A model generated the notes under the pieces. The model saw nothing but the letters and a program-made list of their open reading frames with translations. It searched no databases and was not told the DNA's origin. A stretch of DNA of 64,000 bases from Candidatus Atabeyarchaeum deiterrae (GTDB lineage Archaea > Asgardarchaeota > Atabeyarchaeia > Atabeyarchaeales > Atabeyarchaeaceae), in the NCBI GenBank assembly GCA_037310415.1, contig CP147780.1, forward strand, positions 1,984,001 to 2,048,000, read 5' to 3'. A program made the translations under genes and the position numbers. This document shows positions 30,532-55,679 of this stretch, in pieces (position 1 is the first letter of the stretch; the number at the start of each line of letters is the position of its first letter).

Positions 30532-30559
30532 CGTGCACATAACTCGGCTTATGTGCAGT
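30532..30559. other. dif-like site 1 (attL of the provirus)
   Basis: CGTGCACATAA-CTCGGC-TTATGTGCAGT: 11-6-11 with a 9-bp perfect inverted repeat. Confidence 0.85.
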
Positions 30560-30726
30560 TCCAAAGAGTGACTCTTTGGTGTCGACTTATGGCTGTTTTG
30601 TAGCAACGTTATGTTGCAATTAGATGTAGACGTGGGGGCTATATAAAGTCATACGTTTTACATGATTTTTGAGAGTGAGCTCACCTTACGGGGTGGGCTA
30701 CCTGACAAACAAGGGAGTGTGTCTGA

Positions 30727-31635
30727 ATGGACAAAAGACTAGCTTTGCTTCTGGTTGCGTTGGTTTCCTTCGGGGTTGTTGTGACCGGAATGGGAGTTCT
30801 TACCCCTGCTCAGGCTCTTGACCCGACTTTTAGTTGCACGGCTACGCCTAACAAGGCCATGTATGTATACGGTGAATCTGCCACGGTCGCCATAACGTTA
30901 ACGTATAACTACGTGGCGGCTGCCAAATACCTGAACATAAGGCCATACTTGAATGACGTTGTCCAGTCTACCTCTTGGGGACAGTTCAAGGTCGTGGCGG
31001 GGAGTGCTGGATATACGAACAGCTCTACTAAGACAATGCCGGTGAATGCTACTAAGTTCTTTGGCACTCGAACGTATGTGTTGAAGTTCATAGAAAACAC
31101 GACGAACTTCGTAATAGCTTCGGTGAGCTTCGTGATAACGGTGTCGAGCGCGGGCTATACTTTGAGTGTTGGCATGGTGTACACGGATAGCGACGGTGAC
31201 AAGGTGCTGGATGCGAATGAACCAATCCAGTATACTGCATACCTCACTTACTCGTATCTCAACGTCTCAAAATCCGTTGCGTGGGCGATAAGTATCGATG
31301 GTGGCGCATACCTCACTTTCGACAACGACACGATCGTAGGGAGTAACACAATCAACAGTCTGTATTCCAACACGTTCTCGGTAGACGGGAAGCATGCGGT
31401 AGACTTCAAGGTATATGACAGTCTCGGCGTTTCCTTAGCGACTCAGCACCTAGACGTTGTGGTCGGTGGTGTTGCTGCAGGTAGCTGGATAGACTACCTT
31501 GTGGAGAATCCGCTGTTAATCGTTGCTATTGTTGGCGTTGTTCTGGTTGTGCTTGTTGCTGCTATTGCATTGCGTAGGCCTAAGGGTAGCTCTTCACGGC
31601 GGTTCGGGCGGTGGCGACGTAAGTATAGAGGGTAG
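30727..31635 (+). CDS. viral type I membrane protein (putative major envelope/spike protein)
   Basis: Signal peptide, beta-rich ectodomain, C-terminal TM, Arg-rich tail RRPKGSSSRRFGRWRRKYRG. Confidence 0.7.
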   Translation: MDKRLALLLVALVSFGVVVTGMGVLTPAQALDPTFSCTATPNKAMYVYGESATVAITLTYNYVAAAKYLNIRPYLNDVVQSTSWGQFKVVAGSAGYTNSSTKTMPVNATKFFGTRTYVLKFIENTTNFVIASVSFVITVSSAGYTLSVGMVYTDSDGDKVLDANEPIQYTAYLTYSYLNVSKSVAWAISIDGGAYLTFDNDTIVGSNTINSLYSNTFSVDGKHAVDFKVYDSLGVSLATQHLDVVVGGVAAGSWIDYLVENPLLIVAIVGVVLVVLVAAIALRRPKGSSSRRFGRWRRKYRG

Positions 31636-31656
31636 GCGTTGGGAACAGGGCTAACT

Positions 31657-31673
31657 TCTCCCTCATTTTTTCT
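31657..31673 (+). terminator. internal T-tract terminator after the first viral gene
   Basis: CTCCCTCATTTTTTCT between genes 1 and 2. Confidence 0.4.
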
Positions 31674-31692
31674 AATAGGAGCTGGTGAAACT

Positions 31693-32823
31693 ATGGGGCG
31701 CGGTGTAATCGTCGTTGTGTTCATACTTGTCTTGGCTGCTGGTGGTATGTTCGTAAGCAACTACAAGGGTGAAGCTACGGCTACGGTGTCTGCAAGTGGT
31801 AGTGTTGTGAATGGCAATGAGGAACTTGGTTTCACGTTGTCCGGAGATCAAACGTGGCTCGCTTGTTGGGCTTTCGGTGCAAAGTGGCTCGTGAACGGTC
31901 AAGAGCGTCTTACTGCTGGATACTCGTATTCGTTGGATGTCAGCGGTCAGAACTTGGTTCAGGGTAGTGTTGTTGAGACGGTGACATTCAAAGCTGCTAA
32001 GAGTGGCGTTGAAAGTACTAGGTGGGCTTCGACTGGCCGGGGTGATCCTGGGCGGTATATGGATGCAAAAGTTGACCAAGTGTCTGACATTGCGACGGCG
32101 TTATCTTTCAGCGCGACGAATGGAACGGTGAGCTTAGTAGTATTTCAGGTGCGCGTTGATGTGTCTGCGCGTGGAAAAACTTCGGGTTCCACGTTGACGG
32201 CTTCAAGTGGCTGGTTGACTTTCACCGGTAATCAAGTGTCATACATGGCGTATACTACGAAACTCGGTGCACTCTATTATCCTTCAAGTGTATCAGCGGT
32301 CTATCCTTCAGGTGGTGGTAGTGGAACTCTCGCAAATGTGCAAAGCGACGACGGGACTTACTACTCTGTAGCTCTCGGCGATGTTGACACGTATACAATT
32401 GTGCAGATGGGTTACACGGGGCTTCCAACTCCTTCAACTCAATATCCATACTTCCGCGTCGAGATTGAAGTCAAGGCAAACTTACATAGTATCAATGGTG
32501 TGCAGTTGCGAGTGATGAGTGGTGAAACGATCTTAGCGAGTTGGGATCATGGTTCCATAGGTGTCGGTGGTACGTGGATAGGAACTTTCGGGGATAATGC
32601 GTATTCTGGGAGCTATGTAAGCGGTGGTGCTATGACTCTGCGGGTGTATGCAGGGAGTCAGCAGTTTGCCGGTAACGCGGCTTACGACTACATGAGAATC
32701 AGAATCATAGAAGCGGTGTCTTGGCTTGATACTTTGATGAGCTCTGCGTCCGCGAAGGTGCTCGTAATGCTTGCTATCGTTGCGTTGGTCGTCCTGTTGT
32801 TTGTAAGGAGGCGTAAGGCGTGA
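31693..32823 (+). CDS. viral membrane-anchored protein (putative receptor-binding/spike)
   Basis: N-terminal hydrophobic segment, Ser/Gly/Thr-rich beta ectodomain, C-terminal TM plus RRRK; start set at ATG 31693. Confidence 0.7.
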   Translation: MGRGVIVVVFILVLAAGGMFVSNYKGEATATVSASGSVVNGNEELGFTLSGDQTWLACWAFGAKWLVNGQERLTAGYSYSLDVSGQNLVQGSVVETVTFKAAKSGVESTRWASTGRGDPGRYMDAKVDQVSDIATALSFSATNGTVSLVVFQVRVDVSARGKTSGSTLTASSGWLTFTGNQVSYMAYTTKLGALYYPSSVSAVYPSGGGSGTLANVQSDDGTYYSVALGDVDTYTIVQMGYTGLPTPSTQYPYFRVEIEVKANLHSINGVQLRVMSGETILASWDHGSIGVGGTWIGTFGDNAYSGSYVSGGAMTLRVYAGSQQFAGNAAYDYMRIRIIEAVSWLDTLMSSASAKVLVMLAIVALVVLLFVRRRKA

Positions 32824-33104
32824 AGCGAATAGACTTGTATCTGCTGGTCATGTGGCTGCTCATGAATCTCGCTGTCTACGTTCTCTGGTTTTACGTTCCC
32901 TATTCTCCTGCTGATCCTGGGGGTTCGGGTGGCTCGTCGGGAGGTTCATCAGGTGGCTCGTCGGGTGGATCTTCGGGTGGTGGCAGCGGGGGATTCTTCG
33001 GCTTCAAATATGTCTCTTGGTCTGGTCTGCTTGGGTTTGGCGTTGGATTGTCTCTTGTTGCGTTCATAGTGGGGGTGTTCGTATGGGCATTGATGCGGCG
33101 TTAA
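32820..33104 (+). CDS. two-TM viral protein with a Gly/Ser linker
   Basis: TM-PGGSGGSSGGSSGGSSGGGSGG-TM; GTGA overlap with the previous gene. Confidence 0.7.
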   Translation: MKRIDLYLLVMWLLMNLAVYVLWFYVPYSPADPGGSGGSSGGSSGGSSGGSSGGGSGGFFGFKYVSWSGLLGFGVGLSLVAFIVGVFVWALMRR

Positions 33105-33292
33105 TCATGGCAGTCATGGGTATAGTCGGTGGACTGAGCTTGATCTTCAAGTGGCGGCTTGTCATGCGGGTAATAAAGTGGGTCGTAATCTTGTTCGTTG
33201 CTGGCTTCGTTGTCTCGATGGTTCCACAAGTTCACGATGCACTTGTCAACTTCTATACGGGAATCTTCGGCGGGTTACTGGGAGGCGTATAA
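33083..33292 (+). CDS. small two-helix hydrophobic viral protein (coat-protein candidate)
   Basis: 69 aa from ATG 33083; two hydrophobic helices separated by KWRLVMRVIKW. Confidence 0.6.
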   Translation: MGIDAALIMAVMGIVGGLSLIFKWRLVMRVIKWVVILFVAGFVVSMVPQVHDALVNFYTGIFGGLLGGV

Positions 33293-33295
33293 CTA

Positions 33296-34030
33296 TTGGA
33301 CTACATTCAAGTTGTGTTGCTGGTCAACATAGCTTTCATTGCAGTCGTGTTCCTTGGACGAAAAGTTATTCATCGAAAAAGCAAAGGCGGGACTTCCAGG
33401 GAGCTTCCTGGGACTTCCAAGGTGAAGCGTTCGTTGAAGCGTGCAATATCTAAGAACTTAGGCGTCTTGTTTCTCTGCGTTATCTTGGGCTTCGTTGTCT
33501 TGATAGCCATTCCTCCATCGACATCTGCGGATAAACCACATGACTACGTTGGTGGGAGTCCGATCTATCCTTACGCATGCGTAGGTGGCTCTGCTTCTGG
33601 TGTTCATCCTAACACGGCGGCGGCTGTCGGAAGTCTGTCTTACGTTCAAGAGATAGATGGGCAAGGTTTCAGTATTCGCAGTATCGGCTATGGTCATGTG
33701 CGGTTCAAGTTCAACGTGACGGGAGTCTCCGTTACGGATGACACGTATATTCTTGTGCGCTTGAAGCTGACTCAGAGAGATCAGGGGTCTTACATTGTAA
33801 CTTGGAGTGATTGGAGTGGTGTTGACTTGTCTATTAGTGGTGCTGTGTATTGGCATGGTAGCCCGGACGGTGTGTATACGACTGTGAAAATCTCGGCATT
33901 CAGTCAATTCGTTGCAAACAATGAAGTGATACTCGACTTCGAGGGACTCAACGTTTGGGGTGGTATACTACTTGGCTTAGTTGGGTTATACTGGACTGTT
34001 TCATTCGATCAGATCGTGTTGATGGGGTGA
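33296..34030 (+). CDS. viral membrane protein with beta-rich domain
   Basis: Two N-terminal hydrophobic segments flanking a basic loop, followed by a beta-rich region. Confidence 0.65.
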   Translation: MDYIQVVLLVNIAFIAVVFLGRKVIHRKSKGGTSRELPGTSKVKRSLKRAISKNLGVLFLCVILGFVVLIAIPPSTSADKPHDYVGGSPIYPYACVGGSASGVHPNTAAAVGSLSYVQEIDGQGFSIRSIGYGHVRFKFNVTGVSVTDDTYILVRLKLTQRDQGSYIVTWSDWSGVDLSISGAVYWHGSPDGVYTTVKISAFSQFVANNEVILDFEGLNVWGGILLGLVGLYWTVSFDQIVLMG

Positions 34031-34034
34031 TCTT

Positions 34035-34493
34035 GTGGTAGTATGGCTAATCATTGCTCTGCTGGCTGGTCTGGGTGCGATGTTCGCTATACCGTCGTTC
34101 CTGGGACAGATAGGGGGCGGAATAGGAACGGGTATTATTGTGATAGCTCAGGGCATCGTTTACGTCATGACGCTTGCGATGATTCCAATCATGGTTCTCG
34201 GGCCAATCTACATAATGAGTCGGAGTAAGAAAATAAAACAGAGTTACTATGTCATCGGTGTCATCTACGGGCTTATCTTGCTCTTTGCTGCGACGACATT
34301 CGGATTCTTGACTACTGCAATAAATGGACTCAGCCGGATAACGGGGTCTTGGTGGGACACTTCGGTAAACGCGGTGTTCGTTGTTCTTCTGATGGTATTC
34401 GAGGGTATCGCTTTGTGCTTGATGGACTTTGAGATCATAAACTACGTGAGACGACAACGCTTTAGGCGACGACAGCACTCTTGGAGGTTCTAA
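34035..34493 (+). CDS. viral polytopic membrane protein
   Basis: About four TM segments, basic tail RRQRFRRRQH. Confidence 0.65.
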   Translation: MVVWLIIALLAGLGAMFAIPSFLGQIGGGIGTGIIVIAQGIVYVMTLAMIPIMVLGPIYIMSRSKKIKQSYYVIGVIYGLILLFAATTFGFLTTAINGLSRITGSWWDTSVNAVFVVLLMVFEGIALCLMDFEIINYVRRQRFRRRQHSWRF

Positions 34494-34497
34494 CATC

Positions 34498-35046
34498 GTG
34501 GTGCGCAAGGGTGACCTGTTCTATCCTCTTTTTTCCGTGATTGCCGTATCCTGCGGGGCATACGTGATGTTGCAGGGTAGTTCATCTGCTGCTGCTGTCA
34601 TGGTGTTGTTCATCGTCTGTGCAGTGACTATGCCTTTCATGCGCCGATTTGTCAAAGATAGGCGTGTAGGTTGCGCTGGTCGCTATGATAACTGGTATCT
34701 GGCTCTTACTGCGGTTCCGATTGCTTTGAGGTTTGGCATGTTTGGCTTGACGTTAAGTTGGGCCGAAGACTTTACAGGGTTCACGATGCTTATTGTCGTC
34801 GCTTGGAGTGAGGAAACTTTTAGGGCTGGCGTTGCTGGTGCACTTATGAAAGCAGGCTTAGGGCTCGGCACGAGTATAGTTGTTGCTAACGGTCCTTGGC
34901 TGGTGTTGCACTTTGCGTTACGGGCATTCGTTCTATCATACGCTTGGTGGCTGCTGGTCGCCGGGGCATGCCTTAGCGCGATCCTGTGGAAGTGTGGAGT
35001 AGGAAAAGCGGTGTTGGGACACATCGTAGTAAACTTGACTGCATAA
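34498..35046 (+). CDS. CPBP (Abi/CAAX) intramembrane metalloprotease
   Basis: EETFR (EExxR), WLVLH, GHIVVN (HxxxN) motifs in a polytopic protein. Confidence 0.75.
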   Translation: MVRKGDLFYPLFSVIAVSCGAYVMLQGSSSAAAVMVLFIVCAVTMPFMRRFVKDRRVGCAGRYDNWYLALTAVPIALRFGMFGLTLSWAEDFTGFTMLIVVAWSEETFRAGVAGALMKAGLGLGTSIVVANGPWLVLHFALRAFVLSYAWWLLVAGACLSAILWKCGVGKAVLGHIVVNLTA

Positions 35047-35056
35047 GTGGGCCACT

Positions 35057-35092
35057 CGTGTATACATACGGGTGGTCCTGAAATGTATACAC
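35057..35092 (+). promoter_or_regulatory. bipartite TGTATACA operator-like site
   Basis: CGTGTATACATA-N11-GAAATGTATACAC upstream of gene 35118; the same architecture recurs inverted at 37384-37419. Confidence 0.65.
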
Positions 35093-35117
35093 ACACGTCA
35101 GAGAGGTAAGAGGAAAC

Positions 35118-35771
35118 ATGAAATTCTATCAGGGAGTGTCGGTTATTGGAATTGTGGCCGGACTAATCGGGCTGATTGGCTTCGTAGCTCTGCCTTCGGC
35201 GGTTGATGCTGTTGTGATAGTGATGGCCGGCTTGATTGGAATAGATGTCGGGCTGGCCGTGATGTATCACTTCCTGCCAAAACATGAGGCTTGGAAGATC
35301 AGTATCGACTTGGAGAAAAAACTCGTAAGTCCTGAATTATGTTTGGTTAAAGAGCAGGCGATAGACGATAGGACCAGGGTGTTTCGGGCGAAGGACGGGA
35401 CGCCTGTGTATGTTCTCGACAAGAGTGGTGCGTTGACTAATGTGCATAGAGTCGGTGAACTGGAATACTTAGCTGACGTTGGGGTGATGGGGGACATCAT
35501 CAAGTCAAACGAGAAACTTGTCGTTCGTTCGATGTCCTTGGAAAAATACGCTGGAGTCTATGCTCGGTTGTGTGCCTCGAGGGTTGCCGACTTCGTAGTT
35601 AGCAACTTGAGGCCTGCGGAGAGTTCCGACAATATTCGCGGTATGCTAAAAGGGTTTGAAGGAAAACTAACAGAGGTGTTCGAGGGTGTCCGACGAGAGC
35701 TTGGAGAGGGAGAATCAGATACAGCGAAGGGTGGTAAACAAAATACTTCCCAGAAAGTTTCTAAGTCCTGA
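35118..35771 (+). CDS. viral two-TM protein with soluble C-terminal domain
   Basis: Two N-terminal TM helices, charged helical C-terminus, GAGG-type RBS. Confidence 0.65.
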   Translation: MKFYQGVSVIGIVAGLIGLIGFVALPSAVDAVVIVMAGLIGIDVGLAVMYHFLPKHEAWKISIDLEKKLVSPELCLVKEQAIDDRTRVFRAKDGTPVYVLDKSGALTNVHRVGELEYLADVGVMGDIIKSNEKLVVRSMSLEKYAGVYARLCASRVADFVVSNLRPAESSDNIRGMLKGFEGKLTEVFEGVRRELGEGESDTAKGGKQNTSQKVSKS

Positions 35772-35772
35772 G

Positions 35773-35964
35773 ATGCCGTTGATCGATGACTTGATTGATG
35801 GCGCGAAGGAGGAAACTAAAGCGGTGGTATATGAGGCTGTAGGCTTCAACTTCATGATCCGTAATCCTGGTGATGCCTGGAGGGCTATATCGTGTCTTGG
35901 TTCAGAACAGAGGCGGACTTGGTCGCAACAGTTAGAGAGCTTAAGGAAACGCGCCAAACAGTAA
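35773..35964 (+). CDS. small viral protein, or frameshifted N-terminus of the ATPase
   Basis: ATG 2 bp after the previous stop; overlaps the ATPase frame. Confidence 0.45.
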   Translation: MPLIDDLIDGAKEETKAVVYEAVGFNFMIRNPGDAWRAISCLGSEQRRTWSQQLESLRKRAKQ

Positions 35965-36461
35965 ACTGCTCTGTTACTGGTCCAAGGGGCTTCTATAAGA
36001 CTCTTGCGTTGCAGACTATATACTACCATGTTAAAGACAAATTCTCTGCTTGTATGTGTTACACTTTGCTGGATCTTCCTCAAGAGCCTGTGGACGTTCT
36101 CTTGTTGGACGATTTCTCTAGTAAGTTCTATAAGAGGCGGTTCGGGACCGTTCCTAACATTGAGTTCATGACTGCACTTAATGAAGTGCGTGAGCTGACG
36201 GCCATGATTGTAACAACTTGCCCGGATCACGGAGACCTGGACTTGGATATGCGGGGTTTCTTCCAGGATAACAGCATGCTGTTTGTTGGTTGCTTCGAGC
36301 TTGATGATTCGATATACATATTAAGTCCGGCGCCAATAGAGTTCTATGAATCTGAGAAGAAGCGTGAGGTTGAAGCAAAGAGGCGGTTGTGGCGTGAGCG
36401 CGTTGAGAGAATTAAAGCGGTTGCAGTCGCAAAAGACCGAGGCTTTAGTGAAAGAACCTGA
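35892..36461 (+). CDS. viral P-loop ATPase (Zot/pI-like morphogenesis ATPase candidate)
   Basis: Walker A variant GPRGFYKT, Walker B VLLLDD, then R..TAMIVTT.P....LD..MR. Confidence 0.7.
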   Translation: MSWFRTEADLVATVRELKETRQTVNCSVTGPRGFYKTLALQTIYYHVKDKFSACMCYTLLDLPQEPVDVLLLDDFSSKFYKRRFGTVPNIEFMTALNEVRELTAMIVTTCPDHGDLDLDMRGFFQDNSMLFVGCFELDDSIYILSPAPIEFYESEKKREVEAKRRLWRERVERIKAVAVAKDRGFSERT

Positions 36462-36981
36462 TTGTTACAACTTGGGCTTGTATGATGGTGACAAGACTGT
36501 ATGCTACTGCATCTGCGTCTGGCGGTTCGCCTGCTATACTAAGTCATTTGGTCAAACTCAATTCACTAAGAAGCAGGAGCAAGCCGTCGACGGAGCCATG
36601 AAGTAGATTGGTTTCACAAATTGATGGTTTCCACAAGTGGCTACTTTTGGGTGCAAAGAGTAGGGGCAAATAGGTTCAATATGGTATCTTGTAGCGTGTT
36701 TTAGGTCTGGGATCCCTGGACCCTGGACGTCTGCAGCTGTGCAGGGTGGCCATATATATCTGCTGTGTTTCGTTGGAATCCGTAGTATTCTAATATCGCT
36801 TGTAGACAAGTGTTTGAAAATCGTTTGTTTATGCGGTTCTCTACGTTTCTGACGTCGAAGGGCTGACTGTTTAGTGTGGTTTCCTGTGAGGGTGCTAAAA
36901 TCACGTCCGATGTCAAATAAGTCGTTTTCGTGATAAAAAATAGGAGTTAGTGATTTTGAGTAGTGTCTGATAGGGGTTCAT

Positions 36982-37272
36982 CTAAGTAGTCCTTGGCTTC
37001 TTCGTAACGTCTAAGTTTGGTAGGATCATAGTGTGGTCCCTGCATGCGCAGAAGATTCCGACGTTATTCCAGGTCGCTTTTTGCTTATTCCGGAATATCC
37101 GGGACTTCTCTGGGTATTCGTAGGTGACTGTCCTGGTGTATGCTGTTCGTCTTGTTGCTGGGCTTGGAGGGTATCCGTGTGCCTTGATACATTCCTTGCA
37201 TGCTTGCGGTAAGTCCTTGAGTCTTGGGTCTTTCTCATCTTTGATGTAAATGTATTTGCTTTCATTTGTCAA
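36982..37272 (-). CDS. viral Cys-rich (zinc-binding) protein
   Basis: CKEC...CAC..H; followed by a T-tract on the minus strand. Confidence 0.55.
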   Translation of the reverse strand: MTNESKYIYIKDEKDPRLKDLPQACKECIKAHGYPPSPATRRTAYTRTVTYEYPEKSRIFRNKQKATWNNVGIFCACRDHTMILPNLDVTKKPRTT

Positions 37273-37300
37273 GCTTGACAGCCTTCTTGTGAGCTGGTTA

Positions 37301-37469
37301 TGTATACATGGCGACGTCTGCGCATATAGCCTTTTCTCCGTCTCTTGAGACTAGTCGTGGTGTATACATTATTGGATCTCGGAGTGTATACATTTCGGGT
37401 CCTGCTTTATGTATACACGCACGGCCATGGCGTTAGACTTAACTCTCCGATGGACTAGTAGTGTATACA
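37301..37469. repeat. cluster of five TGTATACA palindromes in a divergent intergenic region
   Basis: Copies start at 37301, 37361, 37385, 37410 and 37462. Confidence 0.8.
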
Positions 37470-37502
37470 TTTACGGTCCGAAAGTATAGGAGGTGGATCT
37501 TT

Positions 37503-37643
37503 GTGAGTTTGGAAAAACAAGTAGAGCAGCTCAGCAGGAGGCTACGGTGGCTGACGGCTGTCCTTGTTGTTGACACGGCCGGTATCGTTATCCTGCTCTT
37601 TATGATGGCCAACACACTTGCTTGGCTCATGAAGTTGGTATAA
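37503..37643 (+). CDS. small single-TM viral protein
   Basis: GTG start after AGGAGGTG RBS; 46 aa with a C-terminal hydrophobic helix. Confidence 0.55.
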   Translation: MSLEKQVEQLSRRLRWLTAVLVVDTAGIVILLFMMANTLAWLMKLV

Positions 37644-37677
37644 AACGTGTGTGCTGACTTGCATAGTATCCTTTATT

Positions 37678-37819
37678 GCGGTCGGCGGTATCCTATGACG
37701 GATTTCGTGGAAATTGGGGGACCACCCGCTGCGCGGCGGGTGGTGGAGTCGTCCAATTTTCACTTTGTCCGCCGACCGCCGTATCAGAGGGGGTCTTATG
37801 ACCCCCGCCGTGAGGCGGG
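37678..37819. other. hairpin-rich non-coding region (putative replication origin or packaging signal)
   Basis: Nested inverted repeats GCGGTCGGCGG/CCGCCGACCGC and ACCACCCGC/GCGGGTGGT, plus GGGGGTC-TTAT-GACCCCC and CCCGCC-GTGA-GGCGGG, next to the end of rep. Confidence 0.6.
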
Positions 37820-37898
37820 ATTAATAGATCGTCACTATGAATGACTGTAAAATGGTTACATCTAGCACCTTGCTTTCTTGTGGAAAAAAAGGAGGGTG

Positions 37899-38906
37899 TT
37901 ATGTGGGTTCTTCTTCGGTTGGCTCTTGTAAAATGAGTCTTGAAATCTCTTGTAGGTAGTAAGTTGGTGCGTATTTGCCTTTGTGGACTTTCTTAAGGAG
38001 TTTGCGTCGAACGAGACTTCTTGTCAGGTTTTGGAGACTTTTCGTCGCTTTCCATGATGTAGCTTCTAATAAGCCCTTGAGAACGGCCTGATCGAGTTTC
38101 AAAAATGCTGCCCATGCTGCGAGGCGTTCGTCAAAGCGTAAACTGTGCGTTGCCATGGTGGGGAACCACGGAATATTGAATCGTTCTAGGACACGGTTAG
38201 CTATTGCTATCGTCGTCCTTATATCGTCTATGTCGTTAGAAAGGTCGCTTGCGTCTCGTCCATTGAGTGTTATCTCTTGCCTTAAGATGGATGGGTTCTT
38301 TTGGTAGAATTTGATTTGGGATTTCCCTTGTCCCCATGCGTTAAGGTAGAATGTGCCTGTCTCGTTGTGAAACTTCATGAAAGATCTTGCGGTAGCCATG
38401 AATAGGAGAGGCTGGTAGACGTCGCAAACAGTCGCGTTGATTTTCTCGCCGACTACTTCGAGCTGGTGTATGTTGACTATTGTATGTGGTGGTTTCTCCT
38501 TGAACACCTTTTCATAAGCTTTCTCATAGTGGGTCTGTGCTACTGCTATTGTCCGTTTCAGGAGTTCGTGAAATTCAAGGGGGGTAAACTGTGTGTTGAC
38601 AGGGCAAACATTATCGTCGAAACTGGCGTCCGGTGGCATCAAGCTATGTTCCTCCATAAAGAGGCGCATGAGGTTGGCCCATACATACATAGTCCTGCTT
38701 TGTAGGCCGAGGACCTCCTTTAGCGTGTTGTGGTCGTTGTCATTTGTCCAGCCCCATTCTAAGCCCCACTCGTTACCAGGTTTAATCCTGACGGCTCTGT
38801 GCTTGTAGAGGTTGTACGCTTCTCGGTCGAACTCGAACTTGCCGTGTTCTTCGACACTTATAGAGAAATAGACCTTGTCATAGCCAAATCTGACGTCTGC
38901 GCTCAT
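37899..38906 (-). CDS. putative rolling-circle replication initiator (Rep_trans/gpII-like) with C-terminal wHTH
   Basis: GYDKVYFS, IHQLEV, GTFYL...IKFYQK...LRQEITL (Y-x-K...R-x-E); ATG 38906 overlaps the HNH stop (ATGA). Confidence 0.65.
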   Translation of the reverse strand: MSADVRFGYDKVYFSISVEEHGKFEFDREAYNLYKHRAVRIKPGNEWGLEWGWTNDNDHNTLKEVLGLQSRTMYVWANLMRLFMEEHSLMPPDASFDDNVCPVNTQFTPLEFHELLKRTIAVAQTHYEKAYEKVFKEKPPHTIVNIHQLEVVGEKINATVCDVYQPLLFMATARSFMKFHNETGTFYLNAWGQGKSQIKFYQKNPSILRQEITLNGRDASDLSNDIDDIRTTIAIANRVLERFNIPWFPTMATHSLRFDERLAAWAAFLKLDQAVLKGLLEATSWKATKSLQNLTRSLVRRKLLKKVHKGKYAPTYYLQEISRLILQEPTEEEPT

Positions 38907-39184
38907 GATATGTTGTGTGCCTCCTTGTGGTGTTTGATGCATAGGAGTTTGTAGCTGTCGGGGTTGTTCCGGATATCGTAATAGCGTTCCTTTCTACCTC
39001 TACCTGCTCGGTGGTTGTGCTTGGGGATACCGAGGACATTCGTCTCTGCGATATGGTGAAACTCGAGCTGTCGTTTCGATGTGCAACGCTGGAAGTTGTC
39101 GAGGATCTTCTCGCACCGTCCGCCTCTTGCCATCCGTAGCTCCTTCATCTTGCCCTTAATCCACTCGTTGGTCTTGTTTGTCAT
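38903..39184 (-). CDS. HNH endonuclease-like protein
   Basis: GGRCE...C...LEFHH...LLCIKHHKEAH. Confidence 0.7.
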   Translation of the reverse strand: MTNKTNEWIKGKMKELRMARGGRCEKILDNFQRCTSKRQLEFHHIAETNVLGIPKHNHRAGRGRKERYYDIRNNPDSYKLLCIKHHKEAHNIS

Positions 39185-44436: not shown

Positions 44437-44442
44437 ATTCTA

Positions 44443-47928: not shown

Positions 47929-50739
47929 ATGAACATTTCTGAATGGAAGACGAGGAGGGAGAAGATCGATCTTCTTCTGAAACGTTCTGGCTGGGATCCA
48001 AAGGATAATAGCAGAGTAATCGAAGAAGTAGACACCAAACAATCAGACTTCAACACAAGAAACTACAAGACTAGATCCCAGACTACCAGAACTAGGGAGG
48101 CGAAAGCCTATGCCGATTATCTTCTCCTTGATTCAATAGGATCCCCGTTGGCCATAGTGGAGGCTAAGAAGTCTTCAAAGGATCCAATACTAGGGCAGAG
48201 ACAAGCAGAGGGCTATGCAGACGATATCAAATCTGGCTCAGGGAAAACCACGTTCATTTTCTTGGCGAACGGTTACGAGGTCTGGTTTTGGAACAGACCA
48301 TATGAGAACCCAAGAATGGTGAGCGGCTTTCACGATAGAGCGTCTTTGGAAAGAATACGGTTCCAAGATCTTACGAAGAAAGACTTTCAGGAAGTTCCAA
48401 TCAAGCCAGAGATAATCGACCGACCCTATCAGATCGAATCAGTAAAACGTGTGCTTGAAGGGATCGAAAGAGGAAAAAGGAAATTCCTTATCGTCCAAGC
48501 GACCGGCACAGGAAAGACCCGTGTTGCGATGGGACTGATTGATGTTTTATTAAGAGCAAACCGTGCTGAAAGAATTCTCTTTCTGGCTGACAGGAAAGCA
48601 CTTCGTGACCAAGCCTACGGCGATCTTGGATTCAAAGCATTTTTCCCAAATGAGTTGAAGACCAAAGTCTTTTCTGCAACAGTGACCAAGGACCCTCGGC
48701 TGTACGCCTCTACGATTCAGACTTTCATGGAGTGCTACCAAGAATTCTCCCCTGGGGACTTTGATGTGATCATCTCGGACGAGGCACATAGATCAATTTA
48801 CAATAAATGGAAGGATGTCTTCACATATTTCGATGCGATCGACGTAGGGCTGACTGCCACACCATCGGAGCTCATCGAGCGGGATACGTTTAGGTTCTTC
48901 GATTGTGAAGACGGAACTCCGACATATCTGTACACTTTCGAGCAAGCCGTGCAGGACGGCTTTCTCGTCGATTTTCGAGTCTACATAGCGCAAACTCACT
49001 TTCAAATAGAGGGAATCAAACCAGAGGATGTGCCAACCGAAGTGAAGCGCAGGCTAATCGAAGACCAAGGAGTGAGCGAAGAGGAACTTGACTTCGAAGG
49101 AACAGACATCGAGAAAAAGGTTGTTATTATCGGCACTAATGAAGCGATTGTCAAAGAGTTCATGGATAATTGCCTGATGGATGAGACTGGTACAATTCCA
49201 GCAAAATCGATCATATTCGCAGTGTCGAAGAGACATGCGAAAAGACTTTGGGAGGCGTTCGAGAAGCTCTACCCACAGTACCGAGGGAGACTCGCACGCA
49301 TTATTGTGTCAGAGGACAGCCGAGCGCAGGAACTAATCAAAGAGTTCAGGAATGACGACTGGCCTCGCGTCGCGATCTCCGTTGACATGTTGGACACTGG
49401 GATAGATGTGCCTGAGATATGTAATCTCGCCTTTGCAAAGCCGGTCTTCTCAAAGATCAAGTTCTGGCAGATGATAGGAAGGGGAACCCGGAACGATGCC
49501 ACCTGCAAAGATGAACATAGGCACTGGTTGCCGAGCCGGAGGAAAGACTATTTCCTCATCTTTGATTTTTGGAATAACTTTGATTGGTTCAACATGCATC
49601 CAGAGGGCAAGGAAGCAAATCCAAGCGAGGCCATTCCATCAAAGATCTTCCTTGCCAGATTGCTGCAATACAACCTTCTCCTTGGCAATAAGGATGAGCG
49701 GACAAAACTACTGAGAGCGAAACTGGTTAATGATGTCAAAGCCCTTCCGCAAGAATCCATTTCTATCAAGGAACATATGCAGGATGTTGAAAAAGCATTA
49801 TCATCACATTTCTGGGATACTGTGGGGCTAGACGCTTTCACGTTCCTCAAAACAAAGATTGCCCCACTGATGAAATACCAAGAAGATATAAACATGAATG
49901 AAGCAGCCTTCACACTGAAAACTGAACAGGTGAGCCTGGCGATTCTAAGGAACGATGAACCAGAGATCGAACGACTACGAGACGATATCGGCGAGTACCT
50001 CAACTGTTTGCCCACAACGATTCGAGAGGTAAAAGAGAAGCAGGATCTAATTGACAAGGCTCTGCAGAAGTCATTCTGGCAAAACATCACTTTTGAAGAT
50101 GTACAAATGCTTTGGAGTGAAATCCTCCCGTTGATGAAATACAAACAGCCCGAACCCAGGCCCATGATCACCCTAGACATTGATGACATGATCCAGCGTA
50201 GGAGCCTGATCGAGTACGGTCCGAAGCCATCACAAGAATATGTCAATACGTACGTACAAAAGGTGGAGAAGAGAATCAAGAGCCTTGCCGAGCAGCACCC
50301 GACTATTCAGAAGATTAAGCGAGATGAGGTAATCACAGAAGATGACCTCAGGTATTTGGAGGGAACATTGAACGGTCCAGAGCTGTATATCACCGAGGAG
50401 GTGCTCCAAAGAGCGTATCAACAGCACAGGGGAACATTGGTCCAATTCATCAAGAAAGTCTTGGGCTCATATGAGTTTCCTGACCCGAAGAAGAGAATCG
50501 AAGACGCATTCAAAACTTTCATGATAGAGAAGAATTACCTAAATGCAGATCAAGTCAATTATCTGAGGACCATCCAGACAGTATTCATGAAGAAGCATCA
50601 CATTGATTATAGGGACGTGTTAGAACCACCATTTACAAACTTTGGCGTCAACTCTCCAATCCCGAGTGACGACCTGACAGAAGTGATAGGCTTATGCCAC
50701 AGCCTGGAGTCAGAGGTGTTTGCAGATGCTAGCTCCTGA
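47929..50739 (+). CDS. hsdR: type I restriction enzyme subunit R
   Basis: ADY..IVEAKK nuclease, ATGTGKT, DEAHRS, GLTATP, MLDTGID, QMIGRGTR. Confidence 0.95.
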   Translation: MNISEWKTRREKIDLLLKRSGWDPKDNSRVIEEVDTKQSDFNTRNYKTRSQTTRTREAKAYADYLLLDSIGSPLAIVEAKKSSKDPILGQRQAEGYADDIKSGSGKTTFIFLANGYEVWFWNRPYENPRMVSGFHDRASLERIRFQDLTKKDFQEVPIKPEIIDRPYQIESVKRVLEGIERGKRKFLIVQATGTGKTRVAMGLIDVLLRANRAERILFLADRKALRDQAYGDLGFKAFFPNELKTKVFSATVTKDPRLYASTIQTFMECYQEFSPGDFDVIISDEAHRSIYNKWKDVFTYFDAIDVGLTATPSELIERDTFRFFDCEDGTPTYLYTFEQAVQDGFLVDFRVYIAQTHFQIEGIKPEDVPTEVKRRLIEDQGVSEEELDFEGTDIEKKVVIIGTNEAIVKEFMDNCLMDETGTIPAKSIIFAVSKRHAKRLWEAFEKLYPQYRGRLARIIVSEDSRAQELIKEFRNDDWPRVAISVDMLDTGIDVPEICNLAFAKPVFSKIKFWQMIGRGTRNDATCKDEHRHWLPSRRKDYFLIFDFWNNFDWFNMHPEGKEANPSEAIPSKIFLARLLQYNLLLGNKDERTKLLRAKLVNDVKALPQESISIKEHMQDVEKALSSHFWDTVGLDAFTFLKTKIAPLMKYQEDINMNEAAFTLKTEQVSLAILRNDEPEIERLRDDIGEYLNCLPTTIREVKEKQDLIDKALQKSFWQNITFEDVQMLWSEILPLMKYKQPEPRPMITLDIDDMIQRRSLIEYGPKPSQEYVNTYVQKVEKRIKSLAEQHPTIQKIKRDEVITEDDLRYLEGTLNGPELYITEEVLQRAYQQHRGTLVQFIKKVLGSYEFPDPKKRIEDAFKTFMIEKNYLNADQVNYLRTIQTVFMKKHHIDYRDVLEPPFTNFGVNSPIPSDDLTEVIGLCHSLESEVFADASS

Positions 50740-52210
50740 ACTGAAGTCACAGATCAACAAACTCTGGGACCGATTCTGGGCAGGCGGAATTGCCAACCCA
50801 CTCACAGCAATAGAACAAATGTCATACTTGATTTTCATGAAGAGACTTGAAGATCTGGACAACGCTGAAGAGAAAAGGGCCATTGCTCGAAGTGAAAAGC
50901 ATACTTCAGTATTCAAGGGTCACGAAGACTGCAGGTGGTCGCACTGGAAGCATTTCAACGCGGAAGCTATGCTGAAGCATGTCCAGGAAATCGTCTTCCC
51001 ATTCATCAAGAGCCTTACCAATGGAGATGATGTTCTCTTCTCGCAATACATGAAAGATGCGGTTTTCGTCATTCCAAAAGCATCCTTGTTGCAGGAAGCC
51101 GTCGCAATCATAGATGATCTGAAGATTACAGAACGTAACAGGGACACTCAAGGAGACATCTATGAGTATCTTCTTAGCGAGTTGAAGACCGCAGGGAAGA
51201 ATGGACAATTCAGAACTCCAAGACACATTATTCGGATGATGGTTGAGCTGGTAGACCCAGACATAGGTCAAACCATTTGTGACCCAGCCTGCGGAACGGC
51301 TGGATTCCTAATAAACGCATACGAGCACATATTGAAGAAGTACACGAGTGAAGACATACTCAAGATGGACGAGGAGGGAGTGGCTCATAATCTTATTGGC
51401 GACAAGATAGTTGAGAAGAGCCACTGGAACCTCCTGAAGAGGGAGACTTTCTATGGATTTGATTTCGACGCCACAATGGTGCGCATAGGGCTCATGAACA
51501 TGATACTTCACGGAATCGAGAGACCAAACATTCGATATGCCGACACGCTCTCAAAGAAATTTGTACAGAAAGCGCAGTACGATATAGTCTTTGCTAATCC
51601 ACCATTCGCTGGCAGCATAGATAAAAATGATATCAACGATGCATTCAGACTTGACACGACGAAGACGGAACTCCTGTTTTTTGAATTATTCCTTAATCTG
51701 CTTCAGGTGGGAGGGCGGGCTGCAATCATCGTTCCGAATGGCGTTTTGTTTGGCTCGTCAAGCGCGCACATCAGAGCCCGAAAGATATTGTTAGAAAACT
51801 GTGAGCTTGAAGCAGTTATCTCTATGCCTTCAGGAGTTTTCCAACCTTATGCTGGCGTCGTCACGGCAGTGTTGGTTTTCGTAAAAGGAGGTAAGACCGA
51901 CAAAGCTTGGTTCTACGAAATGCGTAAAGATGGGTACAGTTTGGACCAGAAGCGAGAGTTCATAGACGGCAAGGGTGACATCCCGGACATTATTCGAAAA
52001 TTCAAAAAGCGAGAAGAATCAAGCCAAAGTATGTCAGTACCATTTGAGAAGATTGAGCAGAATGGTTACAACCTATCGATTTCGAGATATAAGAAGATTG
52101 AAGGAGAGAAGGTCGAGTATGATGACCCCTCTCAATTGATCGACAATGTGTTGGAAATCGAGCATGAAATAGCGAGTGAACTTTCTGCTCTGAAAGAGAT
52201 GATAAAATGA
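50720..52210 (+). CDS. hsdM: type I N6-adenine methyltransferase subunit M
   Basis: GQFRTPRHI, DPACGTAGF, ANPPF. Confidence 0.95.
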   Translation: MQMLAPELKSQINKLWDRFWAGGIANPLTAIEQMSYLIFMKRLEDLDNAEEKRAIARSEKHTSVFKGHEDCRWSHWKHFNAEAMLKHVQEIVFPFIKSLTNGDDVLFSQYMKDAVFVIPKASLLQEAVAIIDDLKITERNRDTQGDIYEYLLSELKTAGKNGQFRTPRHIIRMMVELVDPDIGQTICDPACGTAGFLINAYEHILKKYTSEDILKMDEEGVAHNLIGDKIVEKSHWNLLKRETFYGFDFDATMVRIGLMNMILHGIERPNIRYADTLSKKFVQKAQYDIVFANPPFAGSIDKNDINDAFRLDTTKTELLFFELFLNLLQVGGRAAIIVPNGVLFGSSSAHIRARKILLENCELEAVISMPSGVFQPYAGVVTAVLVFVKGGKTDKAWFYEMRKDGYSLDQKREFIDGKGDIPDIIRKFKKREESSQSMSVPFEKIEQNGYNLSISRYKKIEGEKVEYDDPSQLIDNVLEIEHEIASELSALKEMIK

Positions 52211-53403
52211 GCACACAAGGCGCCTGGAGCGAGTATGCGCTTGAAGATCTGATAGTGGACATTCAGCCAGGCTTTGCTCGAAGACCTTCGTCTGAACCTG
52301 CGAATGTTCCGCAACTTAGAACAAACAACATAAGCCCAGAAGGCAGATTGGATCTGACGAAGTTCAAGTTTGTACCCGCATCAAAGGACGAAATCAAGAA
52401 GTATTCGCTTGTGAAAGGCGATATTCTGTTCAATAATACCAATAGCGATATTTGGGTTGGAAAAACAGCATTTGTCGACCGAGACCTCGAAGCATTGTTC
52501 AGCAATCATCTCACTCGTCTGAGAGTGGACACCTCCAAGGTTAACCCTCACTTCCTGGCAATGCATCTTCAGAAGCTCCAGAAAGATGGATTTTTCAGGT
52601 CAATTTCTACTCGCTGGGTAAACCAAACTGCAGTAAACACGAATGCACTGCTAGAGTTGACAGTAAAGATTCCTTCGTTGGACCATCAGAGAAGAATCGT
52701 TGCGATCTTGGACCGAGCTGACACTCTGAAACGAAAACGTGAACAAGCAAATCACATGACTGACGAGTTCCTCAAAGCTGTTTTCTTGAAGATGTTTGGA
52801 CGCGGGTCACCAGAGAACAGAATTGCCGATGTTGCTGAGTTTGTCTCAAGTGGCGCGACTCCGCTAGGAGGAGAGAAAACATATCTGCCAGAAGGAATCA
52901 CATTCATCCGAAGTCAAAACGTCCTTATGAATAAGCTCCAGCTTAAAGATGCTGCACATATTTCGGAAGACGTTCATAAGGAAATGAGGAGAACCTGGGT
53001 CAAGAACGGGGATGTACTTCTGAATATTACAGGTGCGTCACTAGGTAGGGTTGCTGTCTATGCAGGGGAAGATGACAAAGCCAATGTCAATCAACACGTT
53101 TGTGTAATCAGATTGAACAGATCTAAAGCTGTTCCAGAATATGTCTCTCACTACCTCTCAATGCATGATGCACAGAATGAGATTTGGACGATCCAGGCGG
53201 GGGCGTCAAGGCAGGCTTTGAATTTCGAGCAGGTGAAATCCCTGAAGATATACCTTGCGCCTATCCATGAGCAGAGGACGTTTGCCTCTATTGTCGACAA
53301 GATCAACTCCCTCAAGGAAAGACAACATCAGTCTACCCAAGAGATAGATGAATTGTTCAGTTCTCTAATGCACAAAGCATTCAGAGGCGAGTTGAATGCC
53401 TGA
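52207..53403 (+). CDS. hsdS: type I specificity subunit S
   Basis: Two TRDs with conserved PSLDHQRRIV and APIHEQRTF...AFRGEL helices. Confidence 0.93.
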   Translation: MSTQGAWSEYALEDLIVDIQPGFARRPSSEPANVPQLRTNNISPEGRLDLTKFKFVPASKDEIKKYSLVKGDILFNNTNSDIWVGKTAFVDRDLEALFSNHLTRLRVDTSKVNPHFLAMHLQKLQKDGFFRSISTRWVNQTAVNTNALLELTVKIPSLDHQRRIVAILDRADTLKRKREQANHMTDEFLKAVFLKMFGRGSPENRIADVAEFVSSGATPLGGEKTYLPEGITFIRSQNVLMNKLQLKDAAHISEDVHKEMRRTWVKNGDVLLNITGASLGRVAVYAGEDDKANVNQHVCVIRLNRSKAVPEYVSHYLSMHDAQNEIWTIQAGASRQALNFEQVKSLKIYLAPIHEQRTFASIVDKINSLKERQHQSTQEIDELFSSLMHKAFRGELNA

Positions 53404-54226
53404 CATATATTTCTTGATTCGCCCTCACTGGCAGAGGCTCAACAGAGAAATATGGAACTCACTTGAGAAATCAAAATCTGCGCCTCAAGATATGTACGTC
53501 GAATTGTTACGCTTGGTCTTCCAGCAATTTCATGTCAACCCGAATGTCTCAGCACCACAAATGGCGACTCTGAACGACCCAGATCTAGCTAGATCCGTAT
53601 TCAGAAAGTTCCCTATTCCTCCGGATGAATCTTCATGCATTGAGTTTCTGGAGGGCTTCTACGTCGTATTGAAGGCTTTCGGTCGCAACATATCTGAGAA
53701 GTACCGGTTGAAATTGTCACAATTCCTTGAAGAACACAACTTTCGATATCGGCTTGCCGCTGAATGCAAGATCGAGCTGACGTTGCAAGGATTACTGATG
53801 AGTCAGTTTTCCCATTTGTGCAAGTCTATAGCTAGTAGAAGTGAAAGAATCGAGTGTTTGCGAGAATTGCAGACAAGCCTGACACGTTTGCTGGACACAG
53901 ACGGTGAGAAAACTTGCATCAGGATCGCTAGCAACTTGCTGGAGGGACTGGCAATCGATAGGTCCGGACATAGGGCACGGACACTCGGTCCCGCATTGGA
54001 TAACTGTCCCGATCTCTTTCCGCACAATTCATTGAAAGATTGTGTTAAGAATCTCTATGAGTTTTTTTCTGACTACCCAAATATCAGACATTCAGGAACG
54101 CCGGCCAACAGACTGAGAGACTTGAACAAAGATGATGCACTTCTTATGATCGCTTTGAGCTTGGGTCTCTCATCATTTATGTCGAGCAGCAACGCTACAC
54201 AGCAGATTCTTGGTGGAAATCTATGA
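53396..54226 (+). CDS. hypothetical protein with possible HEPN/Abi-like C-terminus
   Basis: Overlaps hsdS; helical; LYEFFSDYPNIRHSG. Confidence 0.55.
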   Translation: MPDIYFLIRPHWQRLNREIWNSLEKSKSAPQDMYVELLRLVFQQFHVNPNVSAPQMATLNDPDLARSVFRKFPIPPDESSCIEFLEGFYVVLKAFGRNISEKYRLKLSQFLEEHNFRYRLAAECKIELTLQGLLMSQFSHLCKSIASRSERIECLRELQTSLTRLLDTDGEKTCIRIASNLLEGLAIDRSGHRARTLGPALDNCPDLFPHNSLKDCVKNLYEFFSDYPNIRHSGTPANRLRDLNKDDALLMIALSLGLSSFMSSSNATQQILGGNL

Positions 54227-54725
54227 TTAGCCATCCCTGCAACATCGAGGCAGGAATTGGCGACCGAACTCTAGCAAGGCAGGAAGAGCCCTCATCTTCC
54301 TATCTCTATTGGACTCGCTTGGCGCCTTCATCAATGACGAACATGACCTGCATCATGGCACGCTTTCCAGACGTATTGGACTTGCAAACCTGCCAAATAG
54401 GGCGAACCTCTTGAACCTGCAAAGAGGATGTCCCCACTACTATATCTGTACTTCCTCCTTGGGGGAAACTCCATGAGAATATGTTAACAAACATCCCCAG
54501 TAACATCAGGGGAAACCTCCTCCTCACCGAGATCATGCCGATTGGAGAGCTCCGTGAATCGTCCGAGAAGCATCCCAGCCCCTCGCCAGGTCTCTCATTC
54601 ATGCATATTTACATAGCCTCCTGTCTATTTTAATGGTTTCCTGTTAGATTTAATGTGACTCTGATGCGTTCCTATTTATGAAATCACAATGCCAGGAAAA
54701 GGATCACACACATTACCTCCAACAC

Positions 54726-55640
54726 TCATGCCTCTATGCCTCCATCGCCTTCCAACTGTTTGCTTAGAAGTTTCAGTCGGATCAATTCCTCCTCAGTTTC
54801 TCTCATGTCCACATCTTCGTATATCGCAGTTGTCTCCCTGTTCTTATGGTGTAGCAGATTCTGCAAGTCAACAGTTCTGAGTCCTCTGCGTCTCAGCTCA
54901 ACGGCAAAGGTATGCCTCAACTTGTGCGGAGACAACTTCTTGTTTATCTTCGCTCTCTTTGCTGCGTTTTCCACAAGGTACTGTAATCCCCGCCTCGACA
55001 GATCGATTAGTAGATCATTTTGGTCCAAGTTCTCGTCGGCAATATGCCGCTTCACAAGTCTTGGCATATCTTCGCTGACCAATGCAGGAACTATTATGTA
55101 TTGTCTTACGGCTCCTCGCTTGAGCCTGACCCGAACGCGGACTCCTTCGAGATCGATGTCTCTGACCCTCACACCGAGGAGTTCGCCCATCCTCATCCCG
55201 GTCGATACTAAGAGGTTCAAAACAAGCTTGTCCCTCGGAGTCTTTGCTGCTTTTAGTAGTCTGTCCTTTTCCGCTTCAGTAAGATATACTGGGTTCCTGG
55301 GTGGTCTTGACATTCTACCTGCCCTGGGCATGGGGTTTCCAACCATTCTGTCCGTGTCCATCATATACTGGAAGAAGGATGATAAACAAGCTCTCACGGC
55401 TATTATCGACGACCTTTTGTATGCATTCTTATGTGGCCTATCCTGGCTGGGTCTACTGAGAAACTCCAGGAATGCTGCGACGTCTTGCTTTCCGATCTGC
55501 TTGATGTCTTTGTCTGTTCCAAGAAAGCGCCGGAACATCCTCAGGGTATACTCATACTGTCTTGGCGTATGATCAGATGTATCGCTAAGCCTCAGTTGGG
55601 ATAGAAATGCTTGTATTTCCTTCTCCATGGGACCATTCAC
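54726..55640 (-). CDS. xerA: tyrosine recombinase, XerA-like
   Basis: TGMRMGE, PHKLRHTFA, LLHH, TTAIY; N-terminal SAM-like domain; dif-like site directly upstream. Confidence 0.8.
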   Translation of the reverse strand: MNGPMEKEIQAFLSQLRLSDTSDHTPRQYEYTLRMFRRFLGTDKDIKQIGKQDVAAFLEFLSRPSQDRPHKNAYKRSSIIAVRACLSSFFQYMMDTDRMVGNPMPRAGRMSRPPRNPVYLTEAEKDRLLKAAKTPRDKLVLNLLVSTGMRMGELLGVRVRDIDLEGVRVRVRLKRGAVRQYIIVPALVSEDMPRLVKRHIADENLDQNDLLIDLSRRGLQYLVENAAKRAKINKKLSPHKLRHTFAVELRRRGLRTVDLQNLLHHKNRETTAIYEDVDMRETEEELIRLKLLSKQLEGDGGIEA

Positions 55641-55651
55641 CTAGTGATATG

Positions 55652-55679
55652 ATTGCACATAAGATGTATTATGTGCAGT
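55652..55679. other. dif-like site 3, upstream of xerA
   Basis: ATTGCACATAA-GATGTA-TTATGTGCAGT; right arm identical to that of site 1. Confidence 0.85.

Follow-up and report, generated by a model that had tools for sequence, protein, structure and literature searches.

Three dif-like palindromes with two kinds of centre at the xerA locus of Candidatus Atabeyarchaeum deiterrae

The closed genome of Candidatus Atabeyarchaeum deiterrae (G000; 2,756,679 bp) harbors a single Xer-like tyrosine recombinase gene, xerA, at a locus that also contains three dif-like palindromes, an integrated element of 9.6 kb and a defence island of 15.5 kb. Here, this locus is described within a window of 64,000 nucleotides (genome positions 1,984,001-2,048,000); the sequencing runs containing the window are wetland and freshwater-sediment metagenomes. 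Two of the palindromes, sites 1 and 2, enclose the element, and the island lies between site 2 and site 3, which stands directly upstream of xerA (Table 1). The explanation that we favor, by a little more than an even chance, is that of a chromosomal XerA locus at which one XerA serves two classes of sites. Its grounds are the sites themselves and their uniqueness, the mosaic seen in the comparison with relatives, the gene content and the fold of the replication initiator of the element. In the published descriptions of these genomes, four integrated elements are reported for A. deiterrae, and Xer and dif go unmentioned.

For comparison, the xerA loci of a closed relative (G001), of G002 (LC30) and of the metagenome contigs L044 (Ga0315309_1000177), L045 and L046 were used. 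With two copies on L044, this amounts to seven copies of xerA at six loci, all from Atabeyarchaeia.

The palindromes and the recombinase gene

A pattern scan for TGCAYATAA-N6-TTATGTG detects the motif at window positions 30534-30555, 40168-40189 and 55654-55675. In shuffled windows 0.05 matches are expected per window, and six strand-matches were reached in none of 100 shuffles. Since these three sites are also the only exact matches in the whole genome, the motif is neither common nor scattered, and the three shared sites of the original prediction, which had been made from the window alone, are real. Site 1 reads TGCACATAA-CTCGGC-TTATGTGCA, site 2 reads TGCATATAA-GTCGGC-TTATGTGAA and site 3 reads TGCACATAA-GATGTA-TTATGTGCA. 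As had been noticed before, the 11-nt right arm TTATGTGCAGT is identical in sites 1 and 3, and the centre of site 3 matches neither of the other two centres in either orientation. Site 3 alone among the sites is a perfect palindrome in A. deiterrae. In their 9-6-9 layout, the sites share arms that read TGCAYATAA and TTATGTGMA.

Judged by their letters, the arms of all three sites represent one binding specificity and the centres are of two unrelated kinds, here called class I (sites 1 and 2) and class II (site 3). Since the 6-bp centres are unrelated, recombination between the classes is not expected, and class I and class II sites should not recombine with each other. Thus, of the tandem array of three sites that had been proposed, a duplicated dif (sites 1 and 2) stands, whereas site 3 belongs to a separate, xerA-linked class. 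The class I centre C/GTCGGC and its arms are kept in four lineages (A. deiterrae, G001, G002 and L044), with the mobile element present or absent, and the C/GTCGGC site is likely the dif of the Atabeyarchaeia. Its CGGC-containing centre presumably resembles the dif of Thermococcales, a likeness on which no argument is built here.

When the island was scanned for additional sites, including degenerate ones and half sites, chance-level matches in coding regions were all that appeared, and a cassette-repeat scan found no attC-like repeats beyond site 3. Furthermore, no tRNA genes or Rfam families were detected in the window, so that a tRNA-type attachment (att) site is not present.

The xerA gene probably starts with the ATG at 55628, which was chosen because the relatives align from residue 4-5. 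The best PDB matches of its product are the XerA proteins of P. abyssi and T. acidophilum (4a8e, 5hxy). The candidate catalytic set R146, K170, H235, R238, H261 and Y270 does not vary among the XerA sequences of five Atabeyarchaeia loci compared for it. In the genome, PF00589 (Phage_integrase) matches three tyrosine recombinases, and xerA is the sole Xer-like one among them; the two others are non-Xer and distant (0.50 and 1.01 Mb). Also with this XerA as query no second Xer-like gene was found in the genome, which brings the count of Xer-like genes to one. Identities of XerA among three genomes amount to 67, 77, and 68% versus about 80% for a flanking gene, a comparison that is uninformative. 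At the Xer loci of distant Asgard genomes, no consistent dif-like palindrome was found beside the gene. From sequence, we infer that XerA catalyses recombination at the sites described here.

Table 1. Features of the xerA locus (positions in the window; R-M, restriction-modification; aa, amino acids).
Feature	Position	Strand	Assignment and basis
HepT/MNT toxin-antitoxin pair	24325..24992	-	PF01934, E 3e-29; PF01909, E 2e-19; in variable DNA left of dif
Site 1	30534..30557	none	class I, centre CTCGGC; read as left junction (host left arm, element right arm)
Integrated element	30558..40167	both	no integrase; membrane-protein module (+), replication module (-)
Membrane/secreted protein run	30727..35771	+	302, 394, 94, 91, 244, 152, 182, 217 aa; signal or transmembrane stretches in translations
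P-loop NTPase, viral-type, 189 aa	35892..36461	+	Atlas feature score 0.95; TM 0.68-0.75 to viral clusters
Predicted rolling-circle replication initiator (Rep), Rep_trans fold, 335-347 aa	37899..38942	-	AF2 model and Foldseek
Site 2	40168..40191	none	class I, centre GTCGGC; read as right junction (element left arm, host right arm TTATGTGAA)
394-aa protein (352 aa in public calls)	40348..41532	-	no Pfam, NCBIfam or PADLOC family
DUF3226/OLD-type TOPRIM-like	42106..43086	-	sub-threshold Pfam; PADLOC HEC-01B, E 1.8e-7
McrC	43150..44436	-	PF10117, E 1.4e-55; type IV restriction
McrB-like AAA_5 GTPase	44443..46650	-	PF07728; type IV restriction
Half hsdS, inverted	46738..47343	-	type I R-M
hsdR	47857..50739		part of type I R-M 46738..53403
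hsdM	50720..52210		part of type I R-M 46738..53403
hsdS, complete	52207..53403		part of type I R-M 46738..53403
PDC-S32 candidate defence protein, 276 aa	53396..54226	+	PADLOC, E 8e-10
xerA	54726..55628	-	best NCBIfam model recomb_XerA_Arch
Site 3	55654..55677	none	class II, centre GATGTA (TACATC on xerA strand); ends 25 nt upstream of xerA ATG
TATA-like box TTTTTATAGG	55681..55690	-	3 nt upstream of site 3 distal arm; read from sequence
VapC toxin	55856..56242	-	NCBIfam VapC, E 1e-13; outer side of site 3
Small open reading frame upstream of VapC	56239..56532	-	outer side of site 3

The element between sites 1 and 2

The period from site 1 to site 2 is 9,634 bp. The element has a GC skew of about +0.2, and its flanks are negative. 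No recombinase or transposase domain was found between 30.5 and 40.2 kb, the three PF00589 matches of the genome all lying elsewhere, and no paralogues of the element were found in the rest of the genome.

The run of membrane or secreted proteins, for which no Pfam or PHROG family was found, is a candidate virion or envelope module. For the viral-type NTPase, some of the matching viral clusters carry PF05707 Zot and the match to PHROG 5484 is weak; a Zot/pI-like function is a lead only.

For Rep, an exhaustive HMMER search yielded 18 remote homologues. A single-sequence AF2 model was unusable (pLDDT, the predicted local distance difference test, 38.6), and the model built on 13 homologues reached a pLDDT of 85. 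Its best Foldseek matches in the PDB are the Rep_trans initiators 4cij and 4cwc (E 6e-8), followed by folds of the TATA-binding protein, and its Atlas neighbours belong to Phage_CRI/Rep_trans. Invariant in all 13 homologues are a Y-Q-K motif, which we take to be the catalytic Tyr-x-Lys of Rep_trans, and a subsequent R-x-E. Pfam gives a weak Phage_CRI match in one of the 13, and a profile search of Rep against PDB sequences returned nothing. By its modelled fold, Rep is predicted to be a Rep_trans-type rolling-circle initiator. The four homologues inspected all reside on contigs of 3.7-6.8 kb rich in orphan open reading frames (ORFs), and terminal repeats on two of these contigs suggest circles. 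No Rep homologue was found in 400 Asgard genomes, scans of IMG/VR with Rep and the NTPase gave no matches, and a word-seeded search of 5.8 billion proteins for relatives of the element returned the element itself only.

Integrative mobile elements exploiting Xer (IMEX) are well known in bacteria, and by analogy the element looks like one of these, borrowing the Xer recombinase of its host. An integrase-free circular replicon of 9.6 kb would recombine with the host dif via XerA, and its insertion would duplicate dif as sites 1 and 2 with swapped arms, as in IMEX. Here, site 2 keeps the right arm TTATGTGAA, which is also present in the single dif of G001, and site 1 gains TTATGTGCA, which fits a crossover between the host dif and an attP of the element.

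The element is seen in its integrated state in public data. Contigs bridge the junction at site 1 in the three runs X1, X2, and X4, which come from two studies, and the junction at site 2 in X1 and X2. Neither joints nor an empty site nor a circle junction were detected when the contigs of four public runs were searched with window positions 29001-49000, in which it has to be considered that contigs drop rare variants. Exact-protein look-ups of Rep and of the TOPRIM-like gene of the island, eight contigs each, retrieved the same integrated context only. In run X2 the depth is about 32x at 35649-40402, a segment that covers the replication module and runs through site 2 to 210 bp past it, versus 10-14x on both sides. 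The branch point of the graph is found at about 40400 and thus does not coincide with site 2. The rise may reflect a second, commoner strain or element carrying that segment.

Two further observations were made. The 125-aa Cys/His-rich protein of the element (38903-39280) shares 28% identity over 118 aa with a 159-aa ORF of G001 (L031:14382-14861) which directly adjoins the xerA of that genome. The protein could be an accessory factor in Xer reactions, or the match could have arisen by chance. Outside the window, at genome positions 1809639-1813727, a block of 4.07 kb with small winged helix-turn-helix and helix-turn-helix ORFs is flanked by two dif-like sites, TTCGCATAG-GCACAC-TTATGTGCG and TTCACATAA-GCCGGG-TTGTGTGCA, the latter differing by two mismatches from the reconstructed empty dif. 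Possibly this block, which adjoins a WD40-Roc-TIR gene, is another Xer-dependent element that sits at a pseudo-dif.

Site 3 and the defence island

A class II site is found upstream of xerA in all seven copies, with a gap to the ATG of 24-25 nt in five of them and of 37 and 57 nt in the other two. On the xerA strand the centres read TACATC or TACAGT. In A. deiterrae and in copy A of L044 the box TTTTTATAGG, a candidate xerA promoter by its sequence, is located 3-4 nt upstream of the distal arm, and site 3 is flanked by this TATA-like box and a purine-rich ribosome-binding stretch. Since site 3 lies between the box and the ATG, a bound recombinase would cover the likely transcription start. Such a position would suit an autoregulation of xerA through site 3.

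The two halves of site 3 have different relatives. The distal arm and 60 nt beyond it group A. deiterrae with G001 and copy A of L044 (63-73% identity versus 22-42% to the rest), and the end of the centre together with the proximal arm groups it with G002, copy B of L044, L045, and L046 (88-100% versus 59-71%). The switch between the L and R types falls within the 6-bp centre. Site 3 is ancestral, and so is its outer flank for about 60 bp; both are common to A. deiterrae, G001, and L044. For L045 (87.5% on nucleotide level) and L046 (82%) homology to A. deiterrae begins 4 nt inside site 3, and the DNA upstream of their class II site has no match anywhere in the A. deiterrae genome. This break with close relatives points outward, away from the island. 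Furthermore, the perfect palindrome of A. deiterrae is the product expected from a crossover of two class II sites.

The contig L044 contains two full xerA genes in tandem, which are 74.6% identical and as divergent as the xerA genes of different genomes. Each is accompanied by a class II site, and three toxin-antitoxin pairs (HEPN/MNT, PIN, and TumE) are present between the genes; in the same stretch (L044:9920-19257), a dif-like GTCGGC site is preceded by genes for an HNH endonuclease and a methylase. As a side aspect, toxin-antitoxin cargo beside xerA is 93% identical on nucleotide level between LC30 (L005:1019-3344) and L044 (11217-13081), in a different order. Since the adjoining xerA genes are only 70-75% identical, this suggests a recent exchange of cargo.

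In our reading, these patterns from sequence comparison speak for past recombination at class II sites while the family evolved. The exchanged DNA would lie outside site 3, where A. deiterrae has vapBC, and not in the 15.5-kb island. This vapBC stretch (55856-56532) is absent from G001. Further outward, the variable stretch contains a small EAP30/Vps36-like ORF of the ESCRT-II type (57253-57675) and a GC-rich TnpB gene (58206-59528), and the GC content rises up to 55-57% at 58-61 kb.

The same site could be explained without any crossover, if site 3 were a XerA operator or promoter palindrome only, which never recombines, and if the mosaic stemmed from divergence or homologous exchange. The nearly constant distance to the ATG and the position between the TATA-like box and the ribosome-binding stretch speak for such an operator, and the degenerate arm seen in several genomes fits a binding site over a crossover site. 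However, the homology to close relatives stops inside the site without gradual decay, the switch of types occurs within the 6-bp centre and in L044 two class II sites bracket a module with a divergent second xerA. We consider an operator-only role unlikely.

Alternatively, site 3 would be the true dimer-resolution site, comparable to xerS/difSL, and the C/GTCGGC sites would be secondary and used by mobile elements. Archaeal xerA/dif modules do exist in some archaea (PMC5357621), and site 3 is the only perfect palindrome in the genome. Nevertheless, it is the C/GTCGGC centre that is kept with its arms in four lineages, with a mobile element as well as without one, and it is the class II site that has a degenerate arm in G001, G002, L045, and L046, which makes this assignment improbable.

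Between sites 2 and 3, the defence island comprises the genes listed in Table 1 and a 98-aa protein of unknown type before xerA. This agrees with the content that had been described for it (McrBC, a TOPRIM-like protein, type I R-M and unknowns, with xerA at the edge), apart from the HEPN-like assignment, which was not confirmed for any island gene.

Comparison with G001 reveals a syntenic locus. The left anchor is a DUF3604 gene (87% identity), and the right anchors are xerA and the genes from 61.4 kb of the window on, while the interval from DUF3604 to xerA is unrelated (30.7 kb in A. deiterrae, 40.5 kb in G001). The order of site 3, xerA, restriction cargo and dif is found in the same relative orientation in A. 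deiterrae, G001, and L044, again with unrelated cargo: McrBC and type I R-M in the 15.5 kb of A. deiterrae; another type I R-M of about 30% identity, R-M fragments, TnpB and a glycyl-radical enzyme in 23.6 kb of G001; an HNH endonuclease and an N6/N4 methylase in L044, where the cargo following the second xerA spans about 4 kb. Dif lies within 15-24 kb of xerA. Left of dif, A. deiterrae has the HepT/MNT pair and a surface protein. Since this DNA is variable as well, sites 2 and 3 do not form the borders of the variable region, which instead has the sites at its centre. In G001, a HerA-type ATPase and a Vgb_lyase-like propeller are encoded on a 4-kb segment (1988393-1992419; L030:8393-12419) that is flanked on one side by the intact dif and on the other by a degenerate dif-like site.

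The original prediction had left two possibilities for the island, a chromosomal landing pad or a self-integrating element. The former is supported by the sole Xer-like gene, the syntenic locus and the dif of the relatives with the same centre. In the latter, the 15.5-kb segment would be an island carrying its own xerA that integrated into an ancestral dif and whose left att site was later used by the virus. Dif-like sites with identical arms do bracket the segment, xerA sits at its edge next to a site as int does beside attP, the cargo is defence genes only, and L044 demonstrates that xerA-bearing modules can be gained. However, the centres of sites 2 and 3 share nothing, so that the two ends do not derive from one crossover, and the host would be otherwise without a resolvase of its own, as xerA is its sole Xer-like gene. 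Also site 3 and its outer flank are common to G001 and L044, the homology breaks at site 3 point outward and not into the island, and no joints were found in contigs. A self-integrating island is thus very improbable. Among relatives, G001 and L044 retain site 3, xerA, cargo and dif in this order. What persists of this possibility, in a different form, are the modules of xerA plus toxin-antitoxin genes that are bracketed by class II sites in L044. That the mismatch of the centres would prevent excision of the island, as had been suggested, is reasonable from the sequences.

That xerA would be a phase-variation (shufflon) recombinase of the adjoining type I R-M rather than a chromosome resolvase is hardly conceivable, since in spite of the extra inverted hsdS fragment near xerA in both A. 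deiterrae and G001, where it likewise lies beside the type I R-M of that genome, no long inverted repeat connects the hsdS copies (best 29 nt, 76%) and hence no evidence of phase variation is seen, the dif-like sites lie outside the hsdS genes and the locus of L044 lacks a type I system.

Interpretation and comparison with known systems

Returning to the chromosomal XerA locus, the proposed sequence of events has two parts. At the class I sites, XerA would capture the integrase-free replicon as outlined above. The class II site would be an old site, always located with a TATA-like box on one side and the start codon of xerA on the other, a position which would suit autoregulation. It would have served as a crossover point during the evolution of the family, also for modules with toxin-antitoxin genes and a second xerA. 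The segment of 15.5 kb from site 2 to site 3 is then probably a defence island that evolves fast and is trapped between two hot spots of insertion, and XerA would not be able to mobilise it.

A bolder version may be stated tentatively, and we hold it for doubtful as a whole. In this version, one archaeal Xer recombinase runs two classes that do not cross-recombine, of which dif resolves dimers and captures integrase-free replicons, which would be the first archaeal case of the IMEX type and in an Asgard host, and a private promoter site both autoregulates xerA and mobilises cassettes of xerA and toxin-antitoxin genes, so that the resolvase gene itself would be mobile.

Several points weigh against the chromosomal XerA locus with two site classes. 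The XerA product scores 183.5 bits with its best NCBIfam model, below the cut-off of 220. Dif, at 2.014 Mb, is off any switch of GC skew or k-mer polarity: the cumulative GC skew is lowest near 0 and highest near 1.215 Mb, and k-mer polarity switches most strongly at about 0.03-0.05, 0.23, 0.74, 1.22-1.24, 2.14, and 2.26-2.32 Mb, the nearest being about 120-300 kb from dif. The expectation of a terminus at dif was thus not borne out by GC skew. Published dif sites of Thermococcales are not antipodal to the origin either, so the off-switch position weakens the dif assignment and does not refute it. In public contigs no excised circle, empty site or joint was seen, and the insertion is deduced from the duplication of the site alone, none of the close relatives available having homologous flanks around an empty dif. 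The mosaic of site 3 is based on seven sequences as a whole, and the degenerate arm in G001 and G002 means that the class II site may not be competent for recombination everywhere.

If this reading holds, it provides a mechanism by which integrase-free viruses or plasmids of Asgard archaea become resident and explains why a defence island formed at this place. It would also mean that one recombinase can maintain two independent classes of sites, which bears on the evolution and movement of Xer as well as on the control of direction of the Xer reaction in archaea without FtsK. Moreover, a likely dif is marked for the Atabeyarchaeia, whose replication mode has so far been argued from skew alone (PMC11291895).

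The element invites comparison with the bacterial IMEX, namely CTX-phi, TLC-phi, and VGJ-phi of Vibrio and the gonococcal genetic island, which use the XerCD of their host at dif. Like these, it has no integrase of its own, is flanked by two dif-like sites with swapped arms and sits where foreign DNA accumulates. It also shares with them a predicted rolling-circle initiator, akin in fold to inovirus gpII and Rep_trans, and small membrane proteins along with the lead to a Zot-like NTPase. In contrast to the IMEX, it resides in an Asgard archaeon, which lacks FtsK and has one homodimeric XerA only; the arms are nearly palindromic, and the proteins of the element are orphans on sequence level. 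Furthermore, neither an extrachromosomal form nor excision nor a virion has been observed. In the literature searched, no Xer-exploiting element was found described for archaea, and such elements are absent from a 2021 review on the tyrosine recombinases of archaea.

With the XerA/dif systems of Pyrococcus abyssi and Thermoplasma acidophilum (PMC2958812), the locus shares a single chromosomal Xer-like tyrosine recombinase, to which the best structural matches 4a8e and 5hxy belong, and an inverted-repeat site with a 6-bp centre. It differs from them in the score below the NCBIfam cut-off, in a dif that lies within 15-24 kb of xerA rather than far from it and not at a skew switch, and in the second, xerA-linked class of sites.

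A site immediately upstream of the recombinase gene is also known from XerS/difSL, XerH/difH, and the archaeal xerA/dif modules (PMC5357621). In A. deiterrae, however, the linked site is additional to a conserved dif and has another centre. This resembles lox2272, lox511, the FRT variants and the pdif sites of Acinetobacter, where one recombinase acts on identical arms, the centres define the classes and modules are bracketed by sites. While lox and FRT variants are products of engineering and pdif modules reside on plasmids, the classes described here are natural, chromosomal and conserved across genera, and presumably they do not cross-react.

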